Shown here piece after piece: positions 3,139 through 14,658 of a DNA stretch of 64,000 bases. Every line of letters starts with the position of its first letter. Position 1 is the stretch's first letter. The DNA lies in NCBI GenBank assembly GCA_032128875.1, contig JAVLKG010000009.1, positions 128,001 to 192,000 on the forward strand, written 5' to 3'. The DNA is from Candidatus Melainabacteria bacterium 17Bon1m. GTDB taxonomy: Bacteria; Cyanobacteriota; Vampirovibrionia; Obscuribacterales; Obscuribacteraceae. The translations under genes were made by a program, and so were the position numbers. Under the pieces are notes generated by a model. The model did no database searches. It was not told the DNA's origin and was given only the letters and a program-made list of their open reading frames with translations.

Positions 3139-4662
3139 CTAAAATTGGAAATACACAAAAGGAACCGCCTCGGTCGGTCGCGCAGCGAACATCAGTAAGC
3201 ATGCGGCTGTCCAAGATGCAAACCGAACCGGCCAATCGAATGTTTTTCCGTCTTGCGAAAGTCCCAAAGTCTTGGCTACAGACATGAGAAATTCCGATTT
3301 AGATACTTTGTCAGTCAATAACCAGAAAGCAAAGTACAAGCAGGCGATGTAGATTACACCTGACTTTTCGACGGTGGAGTAGAGCGTGCATGGCCCGTGG
3401 AAGTTGAGCATGCTGGTGAGCATATTCATTGCATGCGGCATATCAGGCGCACGGAAAACTGCATAAGTAATGATGATAAATAGAACCACAGCGCTATGGG
3501 AGAGGAGAATGCCAGGCTTCGATTCACACAGAGCGTTAAGCGTTGGAGATTTTTTGAGCAGCCCTTTCCATTCGCGATTTACGCACAAACCAATGCCTTG
3601 CGCTGCGCCGAAAACAATGTAATGCCAGCTAGCTCCGTGCCAGACACCGCAAGCGACCATTGTGATGAAGAGGTTTCGCCACTGCAAAAGCATGCCGGTG
3701 CGATTGCCGCCCAACGGAATATAGATGTAATCCCTGAGCCAGCTTCCGAGTGTCATATGCCATCTGCGCCAGAAATCAGCCAGATCGCGTGACAGATAGG
3801 GGAGGTTGAAGTTTTCCGGGAGCCTGATGCCGAGCAGTAATGCCGAGCCTCTGCCTATGTCCGTATAGCCGGAGAAGTCACAATACACTTGAATGAAAAA
3901 GCCGACAGCGGCAATCCATGCGTCAGGCGCAGAGAGTAGCTGCGTTGTGCTGAAGGGCGCTGCCACGACGTAACCCAGCGGATCAGCGATAGCAACCTTT
4001 TTGAATAGTCCCTGAACGATAAGTCTCGAAGCTTCGACAAACTGATCTTTATCGAGCGGCGTAGGGGTGCGCAGCGTCTCGGTAAACTGCTTGTATCGTT
4101 TGATGGGACCAGCGATTTGAGACGGGAAAAATGAAGCGAATGCGGCGAATTCCATAAAGGAACGCATGGGTTTGTCGCCGCGATAAACATCAACGATGTA
4201 ATGGACGAATTCAAATATAAAGAATGAAATGCCGAGTGGAAGAATGACGCTGTAGACAGGAGCGTCCCAGGGATTGGCCGCGGCGACTTTGAAGATGGGG
4301 AACGCATTCATCTGGGTGATGAACAGGTTGTATGCATTGACCACTTGCTCCATGATCCAGCTTGCGTACTTGTAGTAAACAAGCAAGCCGACGTTGAGCA
4401 GAACACCAAGAGCAAAAACGCTATTGTGCAGCAGCGATTTGTTTGCGCCGTCCACCGGGCGAGTTTTATCAATCGCAAAGGCAATGCCAAAATTGAAGGC
4501 CGTCAGAGCAAAAAGAAGCAGACCATAAATCGGCAACCAGCTCATGTAGAAGAAATAGCTGGAAAGCACGACAATTGCCAGTCGTGCACCGCCCGTAGTG
4601 CGCCAGTAAAGGAAGACAACTATGGGCAGGAAGATAACGTATTGGAGGCTGCTAAAAATCAA
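3139..4662 (-). CDS. MBOAT family O-acyltransferase (AlgI/PatA/DltB-like)
   Basis: Motifs 'LPLGISFF', 'IAGPI', 'YCDFSGYTD', 'ENFNLPY', 'FWRRWH', 'YIPLGGNR', 'GVWHGA' and C-terminal 'FVYFQF'. TTG start with AGGA 8 nt upstream. Confidence 0.93.
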   Translation of the reverse strand: MIFSSLQYVIFLPIVVFLYWRTTGGARLAIVVLSSYFFYMSWLPIYGLLLFALTAFNFGIAFAIDKTRPVDGANKSLLHNSVFALGVLLNVGLLVYYKYASWIMEQVVNAYNLFITQMNAFPIFKVAAANPWDAPVYSVILPLGISFFIFEFVHYIVDVYRGDKPMRSFMEFAAFASFFPSQIAGPIKRYKQFTETLRTPTPLDKDQFVEASRLIVQGLFKKVAIADPLGYVVAAPFSTTQLLSAPDAWIAAVGFFIQVYCDFSGYTDIGRGSALLLGIRLPENFNLPYLSRDLADFWRRWHMTLGSWLRDYIYIPLGGNRTGMLLQWRNLFITMVACGVWHGASWHYIVFGAAQGIGLCVNREWKGLLKKSPTLNALCESKPGILLSHSAVVLFIIITYAVFRAPDMPHAMNMLTSMLNFHGPCTLYSTVEKSGVIYIACLYFAFWLLTDKVSKSEFLMSVAKTLGLSQDGKTFDWPVRFASWTAACLLMFAARPTEAVPFVYFQF

Positions 4663-4666
4663 AGGC

Positions 4667-4700
4667 TTGATCCTTGATCCCTGATCCTTGATCCCTGACT
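4667..4700. repeat. Heptamer tandem repeat (T/C)TGATCC x4 plus a partial copy
   Basis: TTGATCC TTGATCC CTGATCC TTGATCC CTGACT read directly. It covers the RBS of the MBOAT gene on the minus strand. Confidence 0.85.
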
Positions 4701-4838
4701 ACTCGGCTATCGGCTCGAAGCTCAAACCAGTTGAGGCTGTAGGAGGTCGGCAAACGAGCTCAGGTAAGTATACAAGTGGGGCTTCTGCCGTGTATGCCAA
4801 GTCCTTAATCTTTGACTTTGAAACCTCCATTTACAAGC

Positions 4839-4949
4839 GTAGGAGCGATGCCATGCATTGCCCCGACTAAGGGCGTTTTCGCAGGATTGGTTGAAGTTGT
4901 TTGGCCTATCGCTGAGGTAGATCCGGGCGACGTATGGCGTCACCCCTAC
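4839..4949. repeat. Inverted pair of GTAG-type REP palindromes (REPIN-like)
   Basis: GTAGGAGCGATGCCATGCATTGCCCC at 4839 and GGGCGACGTATGGCGTCACCCCTAC ending at 4949. Confidence 0.8.
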
Positions 4950-5136
4950 AGTGATTCGATGCGATTAGATATTGCTTATTCTGCAAGAAAAACTTATCGA
5001 TATTTCGCCTGTATATCGACTGAGATCGAGTAAGACTCTGACTCTGGCTACTCGCGCTTGAAATCTCGGAGGATCTTCCGTATCTTCGACTAGGGCAAGA
5101 ATTTCGCCTTGATTAGCAACCATTAATCACGACGGC

Positions 5137-5166
5137 TTGACCATATTATTAATAGATTAGTAGTAT
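5137..5166 (+). promoter_or_regulatory. Putative sigma70-type promoter of the pyrimidine catabolism operon
   Basis: TTGACC (5137-5142), 18-nt AT-rich spacer, TAGTAT (5161-5166). Confidence 0.45.
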
Positions 5167-5173
5167 CTTCACA

Positions 5174-5365
5174 CTACAAATAGATACCCGTCAGATCGAC
5201 GTAGTTGGCATCCGGTTCAACAACCATTTGGTGCTTACCAATCTTTCCTGGCGGGGGAATTTTGTTTGCTGAGAGTAGCTGCAATGCAGCTTCGGGCGAA
5301 ATTCTCCATAAGTTTGTAGCGGTGCCACTTACGTAGATACGGCCATCATTTTCAACTGGAGGTTG
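5174..5365 (+). ncRNA. Candidate structured cis-regulatory 5' leader (riboswitch-like)
   Basis: Nested complementary segments 5174-5181/5312-5319, 5187-5194/5248-5255, 5254-5268/5293-5307 and 5278-5283/5287-5292, plus an SD-sequestering hairpin at 5353-5365. Confidence 0.45.
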
Positions 5366-5368
5366 CCT

Positions 5369-6679
5369 GTGCCTTCCCATCTAAGCCGCGAAGAGCTAAA
5401 GAAGAAGCGTGATAAGTACATCATTCCGTCCGTCAAGCAGCTGTATGCTGACGCGCCCAATTTCGTGCGCGGCGAGAAGCAATTTCTCTATGACGAGAAG
5501 GGCAAAGAATACCTCGACATGTTCGCCGGTATCGTTACTGTCAGCGTCGGGCATTGCCATCCGAAAGTTGTCGAAAGAACAGTTGAACAAGTAAAAACTC
5601 TCCAGCACACATCGACTTCATTTATGACTGAGCCGATGGTTGAGTTGGCGGAAAAATTGGCTGACATAACACCAGGCAATCTTTCCAAATCATTTATCAC
5701 CAATTCCGGTACGGAAGCGAACGAAGCCGCAATTAAGCTGGCAAGACTTTCCTCCGGCAGACATGAAGTGATTGCTCTCGAGCATTCGTATCACGGCGAA
5801 TCGCACCTCGCCAACGCGCTTACAGGCAACCATAACTATCGCCCGCAGTTGCAGCCTGCAGCCGGCATCTTCTTTGCCGCTAATGCCTACTGCTATCGCT
5901 GCCCATTCCAGAAGCATCCGACAAGCTGCCATCTGGAATGCGCAAAAGATGTAGAGCGTGTGATTCAAACTCAGACTTCAGGCAAGCCGGCGGTGATGAT
6001 TGCCGAACCTATTCAAGGCGTCGGCGGAGCCATCACACCGCCAGATGAATACTTCAAAGAAGTGAAGAAGATTCTGGAAAATTATGGCGTTTTGTTTATC
6101 TCTGACGAAGTACAAACCGGCTTCGGTCGCACGGGCAAGCACATGTTCGGTATTTCAAACTGGGGTGTGCAACCCGACTTCATCACCATGGCAAAAGGTC
6201 TGGGCAACGGCTTCCCCATCGGTGCGTTTATCACCACACCTGAAATTGCAGAAGCCAACCAAAGACCTCAAATCAACACCTTTGGCGGCAACCCTGTATC
6301 GGCAGCCACCGCTTCGGCAGTCATCGACGTGATCAAAGAAGAGAAGATCATGGAGAACGCTAAGGCAATGGGCGAATACCTTTTCGAAGGTCTACATGAC
6401 CTCAAGAAAGATTTCCCGTTTATGGCCGACATTCGTGGCAAGGGCTTGATGGTTGGCATCGAAATTGCTGACGAGAACAAAAACCAAATGGTTGCTGAAA
6501 CACAAAAGATCGTTGAAGCTGCTAAAGATGACGGCGTAATCCTTGGAAAAGGCGGACTTTGGGGCAACGTCATTCGACTGAAGCCACCAATGATCATCAA
6601 CAAGGGTGACATCGATACCACACTGAAAACCATGCGCAAAGCGATGGAATCAGTGAAGAAAGTTGCAGTCACGAAATAG
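5369..6679 (+). CDS. Class-III PLP aminotransferase, AGXT2/PYD4-like (probable beta-alanine transaminase)
   Basis: 'YLDMFAGI', 'GHCHP', 'NSGTEAN', 'SYHG', 'EPIQG', 'DEVQTGFGRTG', 'MAKGLGNG'. GGAGG at 5358-5362 favours GTG 5369. First gene of the pyrimidine catabolism cluster. Confidence 0.88.
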   Translation: MPSHLSREELKKKRDKYIIPSVKQLYADAPNFVRGEKQFLYDEKGKEYLDMFAGIVTVSVGHCHPKVVERTVEQVKTLQHTSTSFMTEPMVELAEKLADITPGNLSKSFITNSGTEANEAAIKLARLSSGRHEVIALEHSYHGESHLANALTGNHNYRPQLQPAAGIFFAANAYCYRCPFQKHPTSCHLECAKDVERVIQTQTSGKPAVMIAEPIQGVGGAITPPDEYFKEVKKILENYGVLFISDEVQTGFGRTGKHMFGISNWGVQPDFITMAKGLGNGFPIGAFITTPEIAEANQRPQINTFGGNPVSAATASAVIDVIKEEKIMENAKAMGEYLFEGLHDLKKDFPFMADIRGKGLMVGIEIADENKNQMVAETQKIVEAAKDDGVILGKGGLWGNVIRLKPPMIINKGDIDTTLKTMRKAMESVKKVAVTK

Positions 6680-6689
6680 CCGAGTAAGT

Positions 6690-6785
6690 GTAGGGGCGAC
6701 GCATGTCTATCGCCCTGTCCTGAGTGTAGGGGCGACGCCATCCGTCTCCCAGTCCAAAGTGTAGGGGCGATGCCATGCATCGCCC
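6690..6785 (+). repeat. Three tandem GTAG-type REPs, period about 35 bp
   Basis: GTAGGGGCG-initiated palindromes at 6690, 6726 and 6761. Confidence 0.85.
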
Positions 6786-6810
6786 GGTGCAAAATCCAAG
6801 AGGAAAGAAA

Positions 6811-7698
6811 ATGTCGAATACTGTACGTTGCGGTTTGATTCAAACAAAGAACGCAATCGTCGCGCCCAATGGTGGCACCGACGCAAAGACAATCGAGAAA
6901 ATCAAAGACGCCATGTTGGAGAAGACTCTCAAGCTGACCAAAGAAGCGCATGAGAAGGGCGTCAAGATTCTCTGCTTCCAAGAACTGTTCAACGGACCAT
7001 ACTTCTGCGCAGAACAACAACCCTGCTGGTACGACCTGGCTGAAGCTGTTCCTGATGGTCCGACCATCAAGAAATTACAAGGTCTCGCAAAAGAGTACTC
7101 GATGGTTCTGGTTGTTCCTGTTTACGAGAAAGAACAAACCGGCGTCTATTACAACACTGCTGCAGTGATTGATGCCGATGGAAAGTATCTCGGTAAGTAC
7201 CGCAAGACGCATATTCCGCAAGTCAACCCCGGCTTCTGGGAGAAGTTCTACTTCCGTCCAGGCAACCTGGGATATCCGGTTTTCCAAACTCAATACGCAA
7301 CAATCGGTGTGTACATCTGCTACGACCGCCACTTCCCGGAGGGCGCACGCGCTCTGGGGTTGGCTGGTGCAGAAATCGTATTCAATCCGTCGGCTACCGT
7401 TGCAGGTTTGTCCGAATACCTGTGGAAGTTGGAGCAACCGGCACATGCTGCTGCCAATGGCTATTTCGTCGGCGCCATCAACCGCGTCGGCACAGAAGAG
7501 CCATGGAATATCGGAGAATTCTACGGACAAAGTTATTTCTGCAACCCGCGCGGACAGATCGTTGCGCAAGCATCGCGTGATAAGGAAGAGCTGTTAGTTT
7601 CCGATTTGAATCTCGACGAGATCAAAGAAGTTCGCAATACGTGGCAGTTCTACCGCGACCGCAGACCGGAAACATACGAACCCCTGGTCAAACTCTAA
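6811..7698 (+). CDS. Beta-ureidopropionase (nitrilase/CN-hydrolase family)
   Basis: Glu-Lys-Cys triad 'FQELF', 'YRKTHIP', 'ICYDRHFPE'; 'FWEKFYF'. ATG 6811 follows GAGGA. Lies between the aminotransferase and preTA. Confidence 0.9.
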   Translation: MSNTVRCGLIQTKNAIVAPNGGTDAKTIEKIKDAMLEKTLKLTKEAHEKGVKILCFQELFNGPYFCAEQQPCWYDLAEAVPDGPTIKKLQGLAKEYSMVLVVPVYEKEQTGVYYNTAAVIDADGKYLGKYRKTHIPQVNPGFWEKFYFRPGNLGYPVFQTQYATIGVYICYDRHFPEGARALGLAGAEIVFNPSATVAGLSEYLWKLEQPAHAAANGYFVGAINRVGTEEPWNIGEFYGQSYFCNPRGQIVAQASRDKEELLVSDLNLDEIKEVRNTWQFYRDRRPETYEPLVKL

Positions 7699-7703
7699 GT
7701 ATC

Positions 7704-7869
7704 GTGGGGGCGCGTTGCACGCGCCCTCTATACGCGGGGGCGTGTTCCACACGCCCTCTATTGTAGGGTCGACGCCATGCGTCGACCGGTCCGAAAAAAG
7801 GAAATCGTGGGGGCGTATTGCATGCGCCCAACAGAATGAGAAGCGTAGGTGCGATGCCATGCATCGCCC
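7704..7869 (+). repeat. Five tandem GTRG-type REP hairpins with variable stems
   Basis: Units start at 7704 (GTGG), 7734 (GCGG), 7763 (GTAG), 7807 (GTGG) and 7845 (GTAG), each followed by a GC-rich palindrome. Confidence 0.85.
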
Positions 7870-7969
7870 GGTATGAAGAGTCCAAAAGGTATCCCAGCAA
7901 TTAAGAACGTGCCGACGACATTCGTTGCGTCAGCTCACAAAGTTAAGTCACTGCAAAAGAGAGCAAGCA

Positions 7970-9454
7970 ATGGCCGAACATTACAAACCAGTAAAGTACA
8001 AAGCGTGGGAAATGAATCTGGAAGAGCGCTTCCAGGAAGTTTTTCCGCCTTTGTCAGAAAGAGAGGCGGTTTTGGAAGCTAACCGCTGCTTATATTGCTA
8101 CGATGCACCTTGCATGGTGGCATGCCCAACCCACATCGATATTCCAACGTTCATTCGCAAAATTTCAACCGGTAACGTAACCGGCTCCGCCCGCACCATT
8201 ATGGAAGCCAACCTGATGGGTGCGTCCTGCGCCAGAGTTTGTCCGGTGCAAGAATTGTGCGAAGGTGCATGTGTTTTAGAGCATGACGAAAAACCGATCA
8301 TGATCGGACGATTACAGCGATATGCGATGGATTATGCCGACGAGAAGAAAATCAAATTCTTCAATAAGGGCAAATCCCTCGGCAAGAAAGTCGCTGTTGT
8401 CGGCGCCGGACCAGCAGGTCTTACCTGCGCAGGCGAACTCGCGAAGATGGGCTTCGAAGTCACTTGCTACGAAAGAAAAATGTGGCCGGGCGGCTTGAGT
8501 ACTTACGGCATTGTTGTCTTCCGTGAGCCAGTCGAAGTCGCACGCGCAGAAGCTAAGAAGATCGAAGACCTCGGCGTCACGATGAAGACAGGCGTGACAA
8601 TCGGGGAAGATATTCAGTTTGATCAACTGCTGAAAGATAACGACGCTGTATTTGTCAGCATCGGGCTGGGCAGTGTTCCCAACATGGACATTCCCGGTGA
8701 AGATCTCGATGGCGTTGTAGACGGATTGGAATTCATCGAAGAAACAAAAGTCAAACCGCTTTCCGATATCAAATATGGAAACCGCATTTGCGTAATTGGC
8801 GCCGGCAACACAGCGATCGACTGCGCGACTATTGCCAGACGTTTGGGCTCCGAGCGCGTGACCATGATCTATCGCCGCTCCGAGGCTGAGATGCCTGCAT
8901 ATCACTTCGAATATCAGTTCGCACTTGGCGAAGGTGTCAGCTTTAGTTTTCTCACCCAACCTGTTGAAGTGCTCTCGAACAACGGCAAGGTTGATGGACT
9001 GAAGTGCGTGCGCATGGACCTCGGCGAACCTGATGAATCGGGCAGGCGTGTTGCCGTTCCGGTTCCAAATTCAGAATTCGTTGTGCCATGCGACATGGTC
9101 ATTAAAGCCATTGGTCAGCTCAAGCACACACCATTCATCGCCAAACTTGGCGAGTACGGAATCAAAACCGTAAAAGGCTACATTGCAGTCGACGGAAAAA
9201 CCAACCGCACCGCGCACGAGAAAATCTTCGCAGGTGGCGATTGCATTCGCAGCAAGGGCGAGGCTTCTACCGTCATGGCTACACAGGACGGAAAGATTGC
9301 TGCTCGCGCTATCTACGAGCAATTGACCGGCAACCGCATTCCCGAAGGCACTCTCAAGAAGTCAACCGACATGACTATTGAGCCTGCGATGGAGAAGGGC
9401 TATGCATTGCATGAGCATAAGCCACGCGTCCATGCGACTGCGCCGACCAAGTAA
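7970..9454 (+). CDS. preT: Dihydropyrimidine dehydrogenase NAD(P)/FAD/Fe-S subunit (GltD-like)
   Basis: 'EANRCLYCYDAPCMVACP', 'CARVCP', 'CEGAC', two GxGxxG/A Rossmann motifs and 'AGGD'. Directly upstream of preA. ATG 7970 taken as the start. Confidence 0.9.
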   Translation: MAEHYKPVKYKAWEMNLEERFQEVFPPLSEREAVLEANRCLYCYDAPCMVACPTHIDIPTFIRKISTGNVTGSARTIMEANLMGASCARVCPVQELCEGACVLEHDEKPIMIGRLQRYAMDYADEKKIKFFNKGKSLGKKVAVVGAGPAGLTCAGELAKMGFEVTCYERKMWPGGLSTYGIVVFREPVEVARAEAKKIEDLGVTMKTGVTIGEDIQFDQLLKDNDAVFVSIGLGSVPNMDIPGEDLDGVVDGLEFIEETKVKPLSDIKYGNRICVIGAGNTAIDCATIARRLGSERVTMIYRRSEAEMPAYHFEYQFALGEGVSFSFLTQPVEVLSNNGKVDGLKCVRMDLGEPDESGRRVAVPVPNSEFVVPCDMVIKAIGQLKHTPFIAKLGEYGIKTVKGYIAVDGKTNRTAHEKIFAGGDCIRSKGEASTVMATQDGKIAARAIYEQLTGNRIPEGTLKKSTDMTIEPAMEKGYALHEHKPRVHATAPTK

Positions 9455-9461
9455 TACAGCC

Positions 9462-9486
9462 GGGCGGCGCGTGGCGTCGCCCATAC
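9462..9486 (-). repeat. Single REP (reverse orientation) between preT and preA
   Basis: GGGCGGCGCGTGGCGTCGCCCATAC. Confidence 0.65.
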
Positions 9487-9498
9487 AGGAGTTTACAA

Positions 9499-10836
9499 AT
9501 GGCTGATCTTTCGATCAATTTCAATGGCATCAAATCTCCCAATCCATTTTGGTTGGCCTCGGCACCACCGTCCAATTCTGGCTATCAGGTTCAAAAGGCT
9601 TTTGAAGCAGGCTGGGGTGGAGCTGTATGGAAGACTGTCGGCGCGCCGGTTATGAATGTGTGCAACCGATATGGAACCATCGACTATAAAGGTCGAAAAA
9701 TTATTGGTTTGAACAACGTAGAACTGATTTCCGATCGTCCTCTCGACGTCAACTTGAAAGAGATGCGCGAGACGAAGAAAAACTTTCCTGACCACGCAGT
9801 GATCGCTTCGGTCATGGTCGAGTCGAAGAAAGAAGCCTGGCAAGAAATCATCAAGCGCATCGAAGATACCGGTGTTGACGGCTTCGAACTAAACTTCGGC
9901 TGCCCTCACGGCATGTCTGAGCGCGGTATGGGTTCTGCTATGGGGCAAGTTCCTGAATACACTTGCATGGTCACTGAGTGGGTAATGGAAGTTGCCACCA
10001 AGCCTGTAATTGTAAAACTGACTCCGAACGTCACAGACATCGTGCATCCCGCAAGAGCTGCTGTAAAAGCGAATGCGTCTGCAATTTCGCTAATCAACAC
10101 CATCAACAGCATCATGGGTGTTGATCTCGATACTTTCGAAATTCGACCAAACGTCGGCGGCAAAGGGGGGCACGGTGGATACGCCGGACCTGCGGTTAAG
10201 CCAATCGCGCTTCACTTGCTCTCGTCGGTCGCGTCGGACGAAGAAGTTCGCAAAGCCGGCATTCCGATTTCAGGAATGGGCGGTGTTGAAACATGGCAGG
10301 ACGCCGTTGAATTCATGTTGCTCGGCTCGACCAGTGTGCAAGTCTGCACCGCAGTTATGCACTTCGGCTTCCGTGTCGTGGAAGACATGATCGATGGTAT
10401 GTCTAACTGGATGGATGAACGCGGGTTCAAGACCTGCACCGATTTCATAGGTGCATCGCTGCCTCGCATCAGCAGTTTTGGCGATTTCGATTTGGGCTTC
10501 CAATCAGTAGCTCGCATCGATCACAATAAGTGCATTCAGTGCAATTTGTGCTTCATTGCTTGCAATGACACTGCTCACCAGTGCATCGACTTGAAAGACA
10601 TGAAGTTGACCGACGAAGTAACCGAAAGACTTTGGCCGGTTGTGCGTGAAGAAGACTGCGTCGGATGCGCTCTTTGCGCCAGTGTCTGCCCCGTTGATGA
10701 TTGCATTACGATGACTGAAATCGATACAGGCAGACCGCATATCACGTGGAATCAACTCATCAAGGAAAAACCGGAAGTCCTGCAGTGGGACAAAATGGTC
10801 GAATACCGCGAGAAGAACCACATTCACATTCATTAG
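9499..10836 (+). CDS. preA: NAD-dependent dihydropyrimidine dehydrogenase subunit PreA
   Basis: 'NPFWLASAPP', 'GWGGAVWKT', 'GLNNVELISDR', 'LNFGCPHGM', 'KLTPN', 'INTINS', plus a C-terminal 2x[4Fe-4S] region (CIQCNLC / CVGCALC). Confidence 0.95.
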   Translation: MADLSINFNGIKSPNPFWLASAPPSNSGYQVQKAFEAGWGGAVWKTVGAPVMNVCNRYGTIDYKGRKIIGLNNVELISDRPLDVNLKEMRETKKNFPDHAVIASVMVESKKEAWQEIIKRIEDTGVDGFELNFGCPHGMSERGMGSAMGQVPEYTCMVTEWVMEVATKPVIVKLTPNVTDIVHPARAAVKANASAISLINTINSIMGVDLDTFEIRPNVGGKGGHGGYAGPAVKPIALHLLSSVASDEEVRKAGIPISGMGGVETWQDAVEFMLLGSTSVQVCTAVMHFGFRVVEDMIDGMSNWMDERGFKTCTDFIGASLPRISSFGDFDLGFQSVARIDHNKCIQCNLCFIACNDTAHQCIDLKDMKLTDEVTERLWPVVREEDCVGCALCASVCPVDDCITMTEIDTGRPHITWNQLIKEKPEVLQWDKMVEYREKNHIHIH

Positions 10837-10844
10837 GGTTGTGC

Positions 10845-11411
10845 ATGCGGCTCAACCTCTTTCGTGAACAAGCACGTAGCAAATATTTGTTGCTGCCCAT
10901 CATTTTCATGATGGCATTTTGCCCGTCTGCATCTTTTGCAGAAGGTGAGTTGCCATCGAGAACTTCGGAGGAGGCGGCTAAGCGCGGGTTGCTAATAAGA
11001 AAGCTTTTCCCAATGCCTGATGTTTTTGATTGGGAAAATCATGAGGTGAGTTTCAAGGAATGTTGGTACGAAAAGCCAGCCCCTGGTGGCTATCACAATC
11101 TGCTTTGTTTTCGACTAGTCGTTGATCAAAGCACCACACAAGAACTTGAAATTCAGAAGAGTTCTGATCGCTCGATGGAGTTTCGCGAGGAAGGCTCCAA
11201 AGGAAAAATATTGCTGACAGGAACTCATATAAATTATCCGTTGCGTAATTTCAAAATCAAACAAATTCGCAAGGGCATGGGTGAGATCATGCACTGGATT
11301 GAAATCAAAGAACCTGATACTAAGCAGTTAAAGCTGCGGATTTACACCATGAATCACAAAACTGATCTAACAAATAGATCTAACGTGGTTTTGACTTTTG
11401 ATGATCTTTAA
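10845..11411 (+). CDS. Hypothetical exported protein
   Basis: ATG 9 nt after the preA stop; signal-peptide-like 'YLLLPIIFMMAFCPSASFA'. Confidence 0.55.
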   Translation: MRLNLFREQARSKYLLLPIIFMMAFCPSASFAEGELPSRTSEEAAKRGLLIRKLFPMPDVFDWENHEVSFKECWYEKPAPGGYHNLLCFRLVVDQSTTQELEIQKSSDRSMEFREEGSKGKILLTGTHINYPLRNFKIKQIRKGMGEIMHWIEIKEPDTKQLKLRIYTMNHKTDLTNRSNVVLTFDDL

Positions 11412-11424
11412 AAGGACGTGAGCA

Positions 11425-12795
11425 GTGAAAAAAGTACTGGCTTTCCTGTCTACGTTGCTTAGCGGTATCTTCTTAGGATCTTGTAGCTCCGGAGTAGATG
11501 AGATGGTTGATCCTGACAGGACGGCCCGGGAAAGCGAAAACGGGTCTGAGATCAAAGTTGCAGTAACACTTCCAATGGCAAGCTGCGCAATTCCCGTCAA
11601 AGAAACAAATTCGGATGTCGAAAAAGACCTTGCTATAGCGATAGAAAAGCATGCTCCGAGCTCGTTGAAGACATTGACGCTAGAGATGCTGGAATCTCCT
11701 CTAATGAAGGTCGAAGTTTGGCCAAAGGAAAGAATTCCTTCAGAACTTTTGAGTCTGCTTGAATATACAGGTTCCACAGCTGAAGAAAAGAAGACTGTTC
11801 GCGAGGCAAAAAAATTTATCGTCATCCATGCTATTGGTAGACCGGGTTGGCCACCATTGCACGAATTTGGCATTAGGACTGCGGCAGCATCGCTTGCGTT
11901 GGAACTAAAAAGTACAGTCTTAGATTTGTATATGCCAGCTTTTGTACATCTCGATCAAGCTTTTGAAACTTTACCGCCTAAAGAAGACCCACCGAAATTA
12001 TCCAGCTGGCTTAAAGTCCTTACGTCTTCGGGAGAAAAGGGAATTTGGCTGACATCACGAGGTTTGGCGAGAGTCGGATTGCCCGAGTTGCAGTCAATTG
12101 ACGTTCCTCCCCAAATAGAAAATTCTTTGACTTATGTGATGACAGGATTGGCGTGGAAGATCATTAAAACTGCACAGGTTGCATTGCATCAAGATACAAA
12201 AGAACTTTCCCTGTCAAACGTGATTGAGGTCACTGACAAAGATATTGATGAAGCGTTTGGCAAGAAGGTCACAACAAAAACAGATACTGCAGCTAGCTTT
12301 CACTTGAAGATAAAGAAGGGAAGCGACGGGGCGGACTACCTAACTATTGTTAAGCCCGGCGGAGATAAGCGAACCAATGGTGTTTACCTCGCTGACCAGA
12401 TGCGTCAATTGATGGGCGCTTCCTCTGAGCCTCTAATTGAAACAACAAAGACGGATGAAATGGAAAAAGCAATGGCACTTGCGGTTGCCGAGTTGCCGAT
12501 GATTCGTGAGCGCTTTATCAGTGGCAGACTGCCCAATAATGGAAAATTGATATTGAAATTCAAAGTTACTCGGGGCGCAGATAGAGAGTATCTCTGGGCT
12601 TCAGTGACCGCGTGGAAGGAACTCGATAAAATCGACTGTTATTGCGGCAATGATTCTCGATTTGATCCCAAGCTCCGAGCCGGTAAGCAATTGACCCTAA
12701 GTCTTGATTCAATTGTCGATTGGGCTGTGATGGTTAATGATGACATTGTCGAAGGCGCTTACACCAATAAAGTTTTGGAGCAAGAGAAAAAGTGA
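11425..12795 (+). CDS. Lipoprotein with C-terminal DUF2314 (YegJ-like) domain
   Basis: Lipobox 'FLGSC'; C-terminal 'DEMEKAMALA...EYLW...IVDW...GAYTNKVL' pattern typical of DUF2314. Confidence 0.7.
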   Translation: MKKVLAFLSTLLSGIFLGSCSSGVDEMVDPDRTARESENGSEIKVAVTLPMASCAIPVKETNSDVEKDLAIAIEKHAPSSLKTLTLEMLESPLMKVEVWPKERIPSELLSLLEYTGSTAEEKKTVREAKKFIVIHAIGRPGWPPLHEFGIRTAAASLALELKSTVLDLYMPAFVHLDQAFETLPPKEDPPKLSSWLKVLTSSGEKGIWLTSRGLARVGLPELQSIDVPPQIENSLTYVMTGLAWKIIKTAQVALHQDTKELSLSNVIEVTDKDIDEAFGKKVTTKTDTAASFHLKIKKGSDGADYLTIVKPGGDKRTNGVYLADQMRQLMGASSEPLIETTKTDEMEKAMALAVAELPMIRERFISGRLPNNGKLILKFKVTRGADREYLWASVTAWKELDKIDCYCGNDSRFDPKLRAGKQLTLSLDSIVDWAVMVNDDIVEGAYTNKVLEQEKK

Positions 12796-13719: not shown

Positions 13720-14658
13720 ATGGACTGTTTGTCCGATGCACTAAACAGAATACGTTTTAAGAGCTATATACATTGCAATAGCGAATTTACTGCACCGTGG
13801 GGTTTGCGCATGCCTGGATTTCAGGGACATGCTGCCTTTCTCGTTATGTTGCGGGGCGGTTGTGTGGTGTCGTTTGAAGATTCGAAAGACACGTATTCTT
13901 TGGCCGCCGGTGAAGTGATGCTGTTGCCGCGTGGCTCTGGCTGTGTAATTCAAGATAATGCAACTAGCGCCGTTTCTGATTTTTTTGATGTAAAACCTGG
14001 CCCGGGTCCAAGGGGAGAAATTTGGCATCATGGTGGAGGTGGTGCTCTCACATCCATTTTGATGGGATGTTTCGAGTTTGACATGCGTGTCAAGAATCCA
14101 CTAGTGGAGAGCCTTCCGGGGGTTATGTACCTTAAGGCAGAACAACTGCAATCCGAGCCGTGGTTGGATACAACAATGCGTTTTCTTGCGTCTGAGACAG
14201 CAAGCAATCGTCCTGGCTCAGACATACTGGTCGGACGTTTGACTGATATGCTTTTCATTCAAATAGTTAGAGCCTTTATGACTCAACACAAAGACTGCGC
14301 CGGCTCTACGGGCTGGTTGAAAGGCCTAGCCGATCCAGAGATTGGTGCTGCACTCCGCTTGATTCATGAGAAACCATCGGCACCATGGACAGTGGCTACT
14401 TTGGCCAAGGAAGTTGGAATGTCTAGAACAACTTTTGCAGTAAAGTTTGCAAACCTCATGACGTCGACACCAATGGACTACCTCACCTCATGGCGCATGC
14501 AAGAGGCTGTGAGCTTAATGGAGCAAGGTGAGGAGAGTGTTTCCGCTATTGCTTCCGCAGTCGGGTATACATCTGAGGCTGCCTTCGCGAAAGCATTTAA
14601 ACGTGAGATCGGGGCGGCACCTGGCGCTTTTAGACGAAATGTTTTGACGCGTGCGTAA
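13720..14658 (+). CDS. AraC-family regulator with cupin_6 N-domain (RclR-like)
   Basis: 'FTAPWGL', 'ADPEIGAALRLIH..P..PWTVATLA..VGMSRTTFA', 'VGYTSEAAFAKAFKR'. Confidence 0.92.
   Translation: MDCLSDALNRIRFKSYIHCNSEFTAPWGLRMPGFQGHAAFLVMLRGGCVVSFEDSKDTYSLAAGEVMLLPRGSGCVIQDNATSAVSDFFDVKPGPGPRGEIWHHGGGGALTSILMGCFEFDMRVKNPLVESLPGVMYLKAEQLQSEPWLDTTMRFLASETASNRPGSDILVGRLTDMLFIQIVRAFMTQHKDCAGSTGWLKGLADPEIGAALRLIHEKPSAPWTVATLAKEVGMSRTTFAVKFANLMTSTPMDYLTSWRMQEAVSLMEQGEESVSAIASAVGYTSEAAFAKAFKREIGAAPGAFRRNVLTRA

Follow-up and report, generated by a model that had tools for sequence, protein, structure and literature searches.

A conserved element in the leader of a reductive pyrimidine-degradation operon was characterized in Candidatus Melainabacteria bacterium 17Bon1m, within a stretch of 64,000 nucleotides (nt) of contig JAVLKG010000009.1 (positions 128,001–192,000), referred to here as the window and numbered from its first letter. 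Positions 5173–5368 of the window constitute the 5′ untranslated leader of this operon in an uncultured genus of Obscuribacterales/Melainabacteria, and the leader contains a real, undescribed, genus-restricted cis-acting element whose status as a riboswitch is unproven. Its present standing is that of a well-defined 96-nt candidate, not a demonstrated riboswitch. A preliminary description of the locus, made from the sequence alone, had proposed a riboswitch-like three-way-junction RNA beginning near 5173. The leader was correctly singled out as a real element, its first ~96 nt being selected when compared with fourfold-degenerate sites; the three-way junction did not survive analysis.

The extent of the element was defined by an alignment of 14 leaders from 13 genomes of the window's genus (denoted g1), in which a conserved block with sharp boundaries runs from the inferred transcription start to approximately +96; a variable segment of ~30–100 nt separates this block from the ribosome-binding region, which is again invariant. 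Identity of this core to the window copy is 72–100%, versus 41–77% at fourfold-degenerate sites across the initial 594 nt of the neighboring gene (12 comparisons), which clearly points to strong purifying selection on the ~96-nt core within the genus. BLAST of 41 related genomes recovered the leader from 12/12 other members of the genus, and a core covariance model detects it in all 13 genomes (own genome included) at 84–108 bits. Core conservation and distribution are thereby observed directly. Each genome possesses one locus, except for one with two alleles on two contigs, and the context is constant across the genus, with the same promoter before the core and the same gene after it. In the window's own genome the model finds a single copy, the runner-up scoring 19 bits (E = 3.6).

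Beyond the genus, the core model identified nothing in 91 family genomes of other genera, save one match (E = 0.054) in what was judged by eye to be coding sequence, and nothing outside the genus (0/148) in a class-wide sample of 151 genomes. The leaders of orthologous operons in four other genera (g4, g7, g9, and g47) gave no score; rows elsewhere in those loci stand at 9.5–9.6 bits (E ~9–10), with none at the g4 locus. A pattern scan of a contig collection returned 60 loci, 13 of them true and all from family genomes already in the set, and a metagenome scan returned four loci, all near-copies of known leaders. Confined to a single genus and present once per genome, the element lacks the class breadth expected of a riboswitch.

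Folding predictions indicate that the core likely adopts, as its most consistent structure, a single bulged hairpin composed of P1′, P2, and an apical hairpin, and not a three-way junction. The elements concerned, including the optional hairpin P3, are as follows.

5173–5268, plus strand: conserved leader core, from the inferred transcription start; 13/13 genus genomes, one locus each.
5177–5184, plus strand: 5′ arm of P1′, CAAAUAGA, pairing with 5261–5268; 93.5% of cells paired, no covariation.
5187–5194, plus strand: 5′ arm of P2, CCCGUCAG, pairing with 5248–5255; RNAalifold consensus, 6/8 pairs invariant.
5189–5201, plus strand: alternative local hairpin, CGUC-loop-GACG, which excludes P2; both 4-nt arms invariant in 14/14 leaders.
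5208–5234, plus strand: apical hairpin, GCAUC(C)GG...GGUGC with a variable loop; RNAalifold consensus, 96.7% of cells paired.
5248–5268, plus strand: 3′ arm of P2, CUGGCGGG, then GGAA, then the U-rich tract UUUUGUUUG; from alignment and folding.
5256–5305, plus strand: P3 hairpin with its AGCUGC-AAU-GCAGCU cap (5277–5291), an optional element; pair probability 0.95–0.98 in the window sequence.

Among minimum free energy (MFE) structures of 11 isolated core sequences from the genus, P2 is present in every one (4 base pairs (bp) only in one), and a closing helix of the P1′ type, A-rich against U-rich and 4–8 bp long, occurs in 10/11, with the exact 8-bp register in seven and a shortened or shifted one in three (shifted in one of these). 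P2 and the GCATC/GGTGC hairpin are retained across the 14 aligned leaders (96–97% of cells paired). The U–G pair of P2 becomes U–A in one leader and is broken in 2/14, and five of the seven pairs of the apical hairpin vary on one side only. A 23-pair model of the core is paired in 95.4% of cells, versus 42–56% when the 3′ partners are slid, and compatibility of the helices with nearly all members is a direct observation. RNAalifold itself retains nothing beyond P2 (6 bp), the GCAUC..GGUGC hairpin, and four pairs located at the ribosome-binding site. Indels in the core fall at columns 21, 51–53, 66, and 75, all in loops or linkers save column 21, at the inner end of P2.

Alternative pairings exist in the leader at two places. 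The CGUC/GACG hairpin, which opposes P2, has a loop of 4 or 5 nt with variable sequence, contains only two G–C pairs, and costs 4–8.5 kcal/mol relative to the MFE when forced. P2 (8 bp) closes a 69-nt domain, with UUUUGUUUG following 4 nt later. This U-rich tract (5261–5268) can serve as the 3′ arm of P1′ or alternatively as the 5′ arm of P3, such that P1′ and P3 compete for it.

The core is preceded by a promoter whose conservation extends well past the genus.

5118–5129, plus strand: upstream promoter box AACCATTAATCA, here the right half of an inverted repeat TGATTA-N8-TAATCA (5110–5129); conserved in g1, g4, and g47, variant in g7.
5137–5166, plus strand: sigma-70-type promoter, with −35 TTGACC (5137–5142), an 18-nt spacer containing a conserved TTATTAATAGATTAG box, and −10 TAGTAT (5161–5166).

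The match TTGACC-18-TAGTAT agrees with the consensus at 9/12 positions, and hexamers at the 16–18-nt spacing of sigma-70 promoters are conserved in orthologous loci. Seven genomes of the four other genera contain such orthologous operons, always beside a divergent MBOAT gene as in the window. Their −35 elements read TTGACC, TTGCGC, or TTGACG; the spacer of 17–18 nt includes a conserved TTAATA(A)TAGAT-like box, and the −10 reads TAGTAT except in one g47 genome, which has TACTAT. The upstream AACCATTAATCA box, a candidate activator or UP-like site, is kept in most of these loci, with only weak resemblance in g9. Promoter conservation, which is observed directly in five genera, is consistent with the earlier placement of the start near 5173, and transcription from ~5173 is inferred from it. 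The same conservation implies that a DNA-binding protein regulator acts on the operon, though none is encoded adjacent. As the preliminary description had stated, no regulator gene adjoins the operon; the nearest transcription-factor gene is of the AraC type, at 13720–14658 (Pfam). A regulon search of the window's genome with both promoter boxes (≤3 mismatches) found no further sites. Downstream of this shared promoter, the leaders of g4, g7, g9, and g47 measure 87–171 nt and show no sequence relationship to the core.

Within g1, six leaders have lost the −35, and five of these six carry an 11-bp insertion creating TAATAT 17 nt after the TTAATA box. One genome bin contains two leader and gene-start alleles on two short contigs, one of the P3-containing type and the other with the 11-bp promoter insertion; either bin mixing or a duplication may explain this. 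Under the title of a Planktothrix metagenome-assembled genome, one public record contains the operon with promoter boxes characteristic of the Obscuribacteraceae-like family, its title and the family placement being in disagreement. In g47, the leaders of four genomes (94–98 nt) yield a consensus fold in which a 5′ UUUCC and the GGAGG of the ribosome-binding site pair and enclose a G+C-rich central hairpin, with compensatory changes at 2/23 pairs among the four sequences. A similar pairing of the 5′ end with the Shine–Dalgarno (SD) sequence is predicted in another genus.

At the other end of the leader, the translation start region is itself constrained, and the operon follows directly.

5358–5371, plus strand: SD sequence GGAGG (5358–5362) and likely GTG start (5369–5371); invariant in 14/14 leaders.
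5372–5377, plus strand: CCUUCC (codons 2–3), complementary to the SD; invariant at synonymous sites in 13/13.
5369–10836, plus strand: operon comprised of a class-III aminotransferase, a carbon-nitrogen hydrolase (carbamoyl-amidase type), a PreT-like subunit, and PreA (Pfam, NCBIfam).

The GTG at 5369 is the likely start codon, lying six bases past GGAGG and opening a conserved N-terminus, VPSHLSREELKKK. The SD is predicted to be 80–96% paired in 13/13 genus leaders with changing partners; CCUUCC is one of these, at probabilities of 0.00–0.91 depending on the species. The majority fraction at third codon positions is unusually high over the first 10–20 codons, at 0.95 (codons 1–10) and 0.88, versus 0.62–0.89 in later windows (13 species), and near-invariance at the synonymous sites of 5369–5428 suggests an RNA-level constraint on the translation start region.

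PreA is assigned by an NCBIfam equivalog at 651.5 bits, against a cutoff of 335. The hydrolase is nearest to carbamoyl-amidases, and the PreT-like gene encodes a flavoprotein. Dihydropyrimidinase is absent among the four operon genes in the Pfam and NCBIfam annotation. The label "pyrimidine catabolism operon" is a fair one, and the assignment of the region as the transcribed leader of a PreT/PreA-type operon is supported. Leader and promoter occupy a 700-nt gap flanked by this plus-strand operon and the divergent MBOAT-family gene (3139–4662, minus strand).

To account for these features, we tentatively lean toward a cis-acting leader RNA in which the choice between P2 and the CGUC/GACG alternative is set by a sequence-specific trans factor. 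Transcription would start at ~5173 from the sigma-70-type promoter under control of a DNA-binding regulator, and the core, folded into one bulged hairpin, would then act in cis as RNA, with P3 as an optional add-on. Two partners are available to the invariant CCCGUC, namely the distal GGCGGG, which gives P2, and the invariant GACG close by. The partner chosen would determine if the G-rich/U-rich segment at the 3′ end of the core (5248–5268) is locked up, and the state of that segment would in turn govern premature termination, the stability of the transcript, or entry to a ribosome-binding site that is occluded already. We infer the RNA-level action, the switch, and its output. The trans factor, whether a protein or another RNA, is ranked above a small-molecule ligand because the stems are sequence-invariant while neutral sites are near saturation. 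Invariant stems of this kind fit a two-way pairing constraint or sequence-specific recognition by a macromolecule and appear unlike the usual helices of riboswitches.

A parallel is offered by protein-dependent attenuation, as in the PyrR-controlled pyr leaders of Bacillus, which likewise possess a segment with two partners (here CCCGUC with GACG or GGCGGG) and a U-rich tract after the distal stem. As in attenuation of the PyrR type, the sequence-invariant stems suggest a sequence-specific binder. The differences are that the present operon is catabolic, not biosynthetic, and that the candidate terminator is weak; the PyrR binding motif is presumably not in the leader.

Several results weigh against a switching leader RNA. 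RNAalifold reports no compensatory changes (covariation term −0.4 kcal/mol), and the 23-pair core model displays no double-sided changes, with 139/500 shuffles as good in percentage paired; ~13 near-invariant sequences afford almost no statistical power for covariation. Folding z-scores of the core are weak, from −0.79 to −2.98 across the 11 genus sequences (the window core scores −2.04 for the plus and −1.69 for the minus strand). In the full-length leader of the window, P2 and P1′ each have an ensemble probability of only 1–2%, because nonconserved long-range pairing and P3 win. Conservation is uneven, the 5′ 44 nt standing far above the 3′ half of the core, which counts against the proposal because DNA binding sites just past the start would give the same pattern. 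No clear stem/loop contrast emerges either, as 27/46 paired and 20/50 unpaired columns are invariant (Fisher p = 0.10). On the output side, forcing P2 or blocking its 5′ arm produced no consistent change in SD exposure across 13 species, and a simple terminator scan found none on the plus strand. Four RNA-labeled runs contain the locus in 7.9–9.3-kb contigs of flat depth and are uninformative on transcript start, end, or truncation.

Conservation at the DNA level is the rival that fares best, although we regard it as rather unlikely. According to this explanation, the initial transcribed region holds operators for the regulator(s) of the promoter boxes, acting by repressor roadblock or looping, and the RNA helices are incidental. 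Box conservation in five genera and the inverted repeat ATTAGTAG-N10-CTACAAAT, which brackets the −10 hexamer, speak for such a regulator, and an AATAGAT motif occurs both in the spacer box and in the first bases of the leader. The 11-bp insertion in five leaders corresponds to one helical turn, the promoter-proximal 44 nt are the most invariant, and covariation is absent. A constrained block of 96 bp is nevertheless long for operators, and indels of 1–3 nt are tolerated exactly where loops are predicted. The CGTC/GACG arms stay unchanged in sequence as the distance between them shifts by 1, which a dimeric DNA operator would tolerate poorly. Moreover, the boxes are unique in the genome at ≤3 mismatches, so no regulon supports a dedicated factor, and the other genera retain the boxes without the downstream block. 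The case of RutR at the Escherichia coli rut operon shares conserved boxes at and upstream of a pyrimidine-degradation promoter; it differs from the present locus, which encodes the PreT/PreA reductive route, has boxes that do not recur in the genome, and lacks an adjacent regulator gene. Nor is rut known to offer any counterpart to the additional 96-nt transcribed block.

A metabolite riboswitch, the interpretation toward which the preliminary description had pointed, is unlikely. The core would serve as the aptamer, recognizing uracil/thymine, a dihydropyrimidine, N-carbamoyl-β-alanine, β-alanine, or a nitrogen signal, and the variable 3′ part would be the expression platform, an arrangement that the conserved core and the 30–100-nt variable part do resemble. 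The core is strongly selected, the internal loop contains invariant unpaired bases (GACGUAGUUG), and the operon has no neighboring regulator gene. The statement that no known riboswitch class is recognizable was upheld by an Rfam 15 covariance-model search of window positions 4400–5700 on both strands, which found no leader match at E up to 10; the sole row, a Plasmodium snoRNA model upstream of the leader, scored 15.4 bits against a gathering score of 45 (E = 6.7). A search of a literature library turned up no RNA sensor for pyrimidine bases or catabolites, and no riboswitch tied to pyrimidine catabolism. Set against these points are the lack of covariation despite near-saturated synonymous sites and the sequence-invariant stems, which are unusual for aptamer helices. 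The element is confined to a single copy, operon, and genus (0/91 other-genus family genomes apart from the E = 0.054 exception, 0/148 class-wide), the orthologous operons of four other genera share the promoter while their leaders are unrelated, and no coupled terminator or SD sequestrator was identified. Of the features generally sought for a riboswitch, support from compensatory changes was not obtained (power is low and the stems are near-invariant), and neither was recurrence across taxa or genes.

Orphan riboswitch candidates and riboswitches of nucleobase catabolism or transport genes, such as the purine and xanthine/NMT1 types, share with this locus a long conserved leader of a nucleobase operon, a conserved core with a variable downstream part, and the lack of an adjacent regulator. 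The locus differs from them in having no Rfam match, no covariation, only one genus and operon, and no identifiable coupled terminator or SD sequestrator. A narrow new riboswitch class, sensing a pyrimidine or a pyrimidine breakdown product and gained by a single Melainabacteria genus through insertion downstream of an older protein-controlled promoter and ahead of an occluded ribosome-binding site, is a slim prospect; the absence of covariation would then arise because the nucleotides are locked by two alternative pairings. A constitutive element that does not switch, either a 5′-terminal mRNA-stabilizing stem-loop or a small RNA derived from the 5′ untranslated region and ending at the U-rich 5260–5268, is very unlikely. 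In its favor, P1′ starts 4 nt past the inferred 5′ end and encloses the entire core, whose end is a stem followed by UUUUGUUUG, and no switch output emerges consistently. Against it, a mere stabilizer would not need near-invariant loops and stems alike, a U tract 4 nt from P2 and a 69-nt hairpin with large internal loops make an atypical terminator (none was called), and the core model detects neither another copy nor a target context in the genome.

The locus is clearly layered, with promoter boxes common to five genera, a leader block in one genus, and a translation start constrained even at synonymous sites. Such layering would provide a compact case for how a new cis-regulatory RNA module joins an existing protein-controlled promoter. 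Gene regulation in the nonphotosynthetic relatives of cyanobacteria is, to our knowledge, essentially unexplored. Should the core be only an operator cluster or a stabilizing stem, the finding would be an ordinary one.

The three-way junction was assessed from its individual pairings. All eight named pairs of complementary segments exist where the preliminary description had placed them, as verified by re-extracting the strings from the window.

5174–5181 with 5312–5319, plus strand: P1 of the junction, CTACAAAT with GTTTGTAG; present.
5312–5319, plus strand: 3′ arm of this P1, GUUUGUAG; exact string in 1/14 leaders, variants in others, absent in 4–5.
5187–5194 with 5248–5255, plus strand: P2, CCCGTCAG with CTGGCGGG; present.
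5208–5212 with 5230–5234, plus strand: GCATC with GGTGC; present.
5214–5217 with 5222–5225, plus strand: GGTT with AACC; present.
5254–5268 with 5293–5307, plus strand: 15-bp G-U-rich stem (P3); present.
5277–5291, plus strand: P3 cap, AGCTGC-AAT-GCAGCT; present.
5353–5365, plus strand: CAACT-GGA-GGTTG; present.

Two overlaps occur in the model, with 5254–5255 counted in both P2 and P3 and G5208 in both TTGG and GCATC. The RNAfold MFE of 5173–5371 is −59.0 kcal/mol, versus −43.1 for the exact junction structure and −54.1 at best when P1, P2, and P3 are enforced. Ensemble pair probabilities in the full window leader are 0.00 for P1, 0.01–0.02 for P2, and 0.95–0.98 for 10/13 pairs of P3, so P1 and P2 of the junction reach no more than 2%. 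Neither P1 nor P3 is conserved. The 3′ arm of P1 is gapped in 4–5/14 leaders, and its outer C–G pair forms in 5/10; P3 has its long form in 6/14 leaders, a shorter related form in one or two, and no form in six. On the alignment, the full model is paired in 89.4% of cells versus 88.1% in shuffled controls, with four double-change pairs versus a shuffled mean of 4.8. Covariation is missing both from this model, which is no better than shuffles, and from P1′, P2, and the apical hairpin, which contain no double changes. Alignment, ensemble probabilities, and the distribution of P3 together lead us to reject the junction as the conserved fold.

Other proposals about the folded leader fared variably. 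Folding of 5174–5365 relative to shuffled sequences is marginal (−58.6 kcal/mol, z = −2.21, 8/200 shuffles as good). The claimed preference for the plus strand holds slightly, the minus strand giving −51.9 kcal/mol, z = −1.84, and again 8/200; the difference is small. Sequestration of the SD by the CAACT/GGTTG hairpin is not borne out: its probability in the window leader, 0.34–0.42 without coding sequence, falls to ≤0.09 in 13/13 genus leaders once 30 nt of coding sequence are added.

A number of further structures were considered and dropped. The long-range pairing of the MFE structure (5183–5215 with 5320–5345) is paired in 80.0% of cells versus 79.9% in shuffles, with five double changes versus a shuffled mean of 5.7, and its 3′ partner region is missing in 5/14 leaders. 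A second local hairpin, UUGG-UGCUUA-CCAA (5228–5241), has the counterpart ACUCG-GUGCUUU-CGAGU in other species and looks covariation-like by eye; this requires shifting the register by one base, and the hairpin is only 61% paired on the alignment. A four-element model (CCCGUC, GACG, a UUUCC anti-SD, and a G-run SD mimic) was set aside, as column 84 varies among G, A, and C without compensation and SD exposure does not follow P2. A leader peptide is likewise rejected, the sole long frame through the core being broken by indels in other species.

The loop of the apical hairpin (5216–5232) is complementary over 17 nt to aminotransferase coding sequence at 6483–6499, 1250 nt away, with 16/17 bases matching (94%) and a chance expectation for the region of ~0.01 by rough hand estimate. 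As a conserved interaction it was discarded, since by hand count the match declines to ~15/17 in the nearest relative and 12–13/17 in the next two; it may be a relic of inverted duplication or chance.

The remaining observations concern the surroundings of the leader. Downstream of preA (10746–12795) lie two open reading frames, of 221 amino acids (no family match) and 456 amino acids (a weak DUF2314 match only). A repeat of ~35 nt, with the core GTAGGGGCGA[CT]GCC, occurs as three tandem copies at 6686–6779, between the aminotransferase stop and the hydrolase start, and once more upstream of the leader, at 4823–4857. BLAST pieces at ~4830–4865 and ~4923–4955 match many contigs in several genus genomes, and 6757–6789 is touched by many unrelated contigs of the four RNA-labeled runs. 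The repeat resembles a dispersed intergenic repeat of the repetitive extragenic palindromic (REP)-like type. Finally, positions 4766–4815 contain AAGTATACAAGTGG, ~22 nt, and then ATGCCAAGTCCTTAATCTTT, conserved ~100 nt upstream of the divergent MBOAT gene. This element is present in 17/19 loci examined, in four of five genera, and on the minus strand it resembles a promoter for the MBOAT gene, with a −10 of TATACT.

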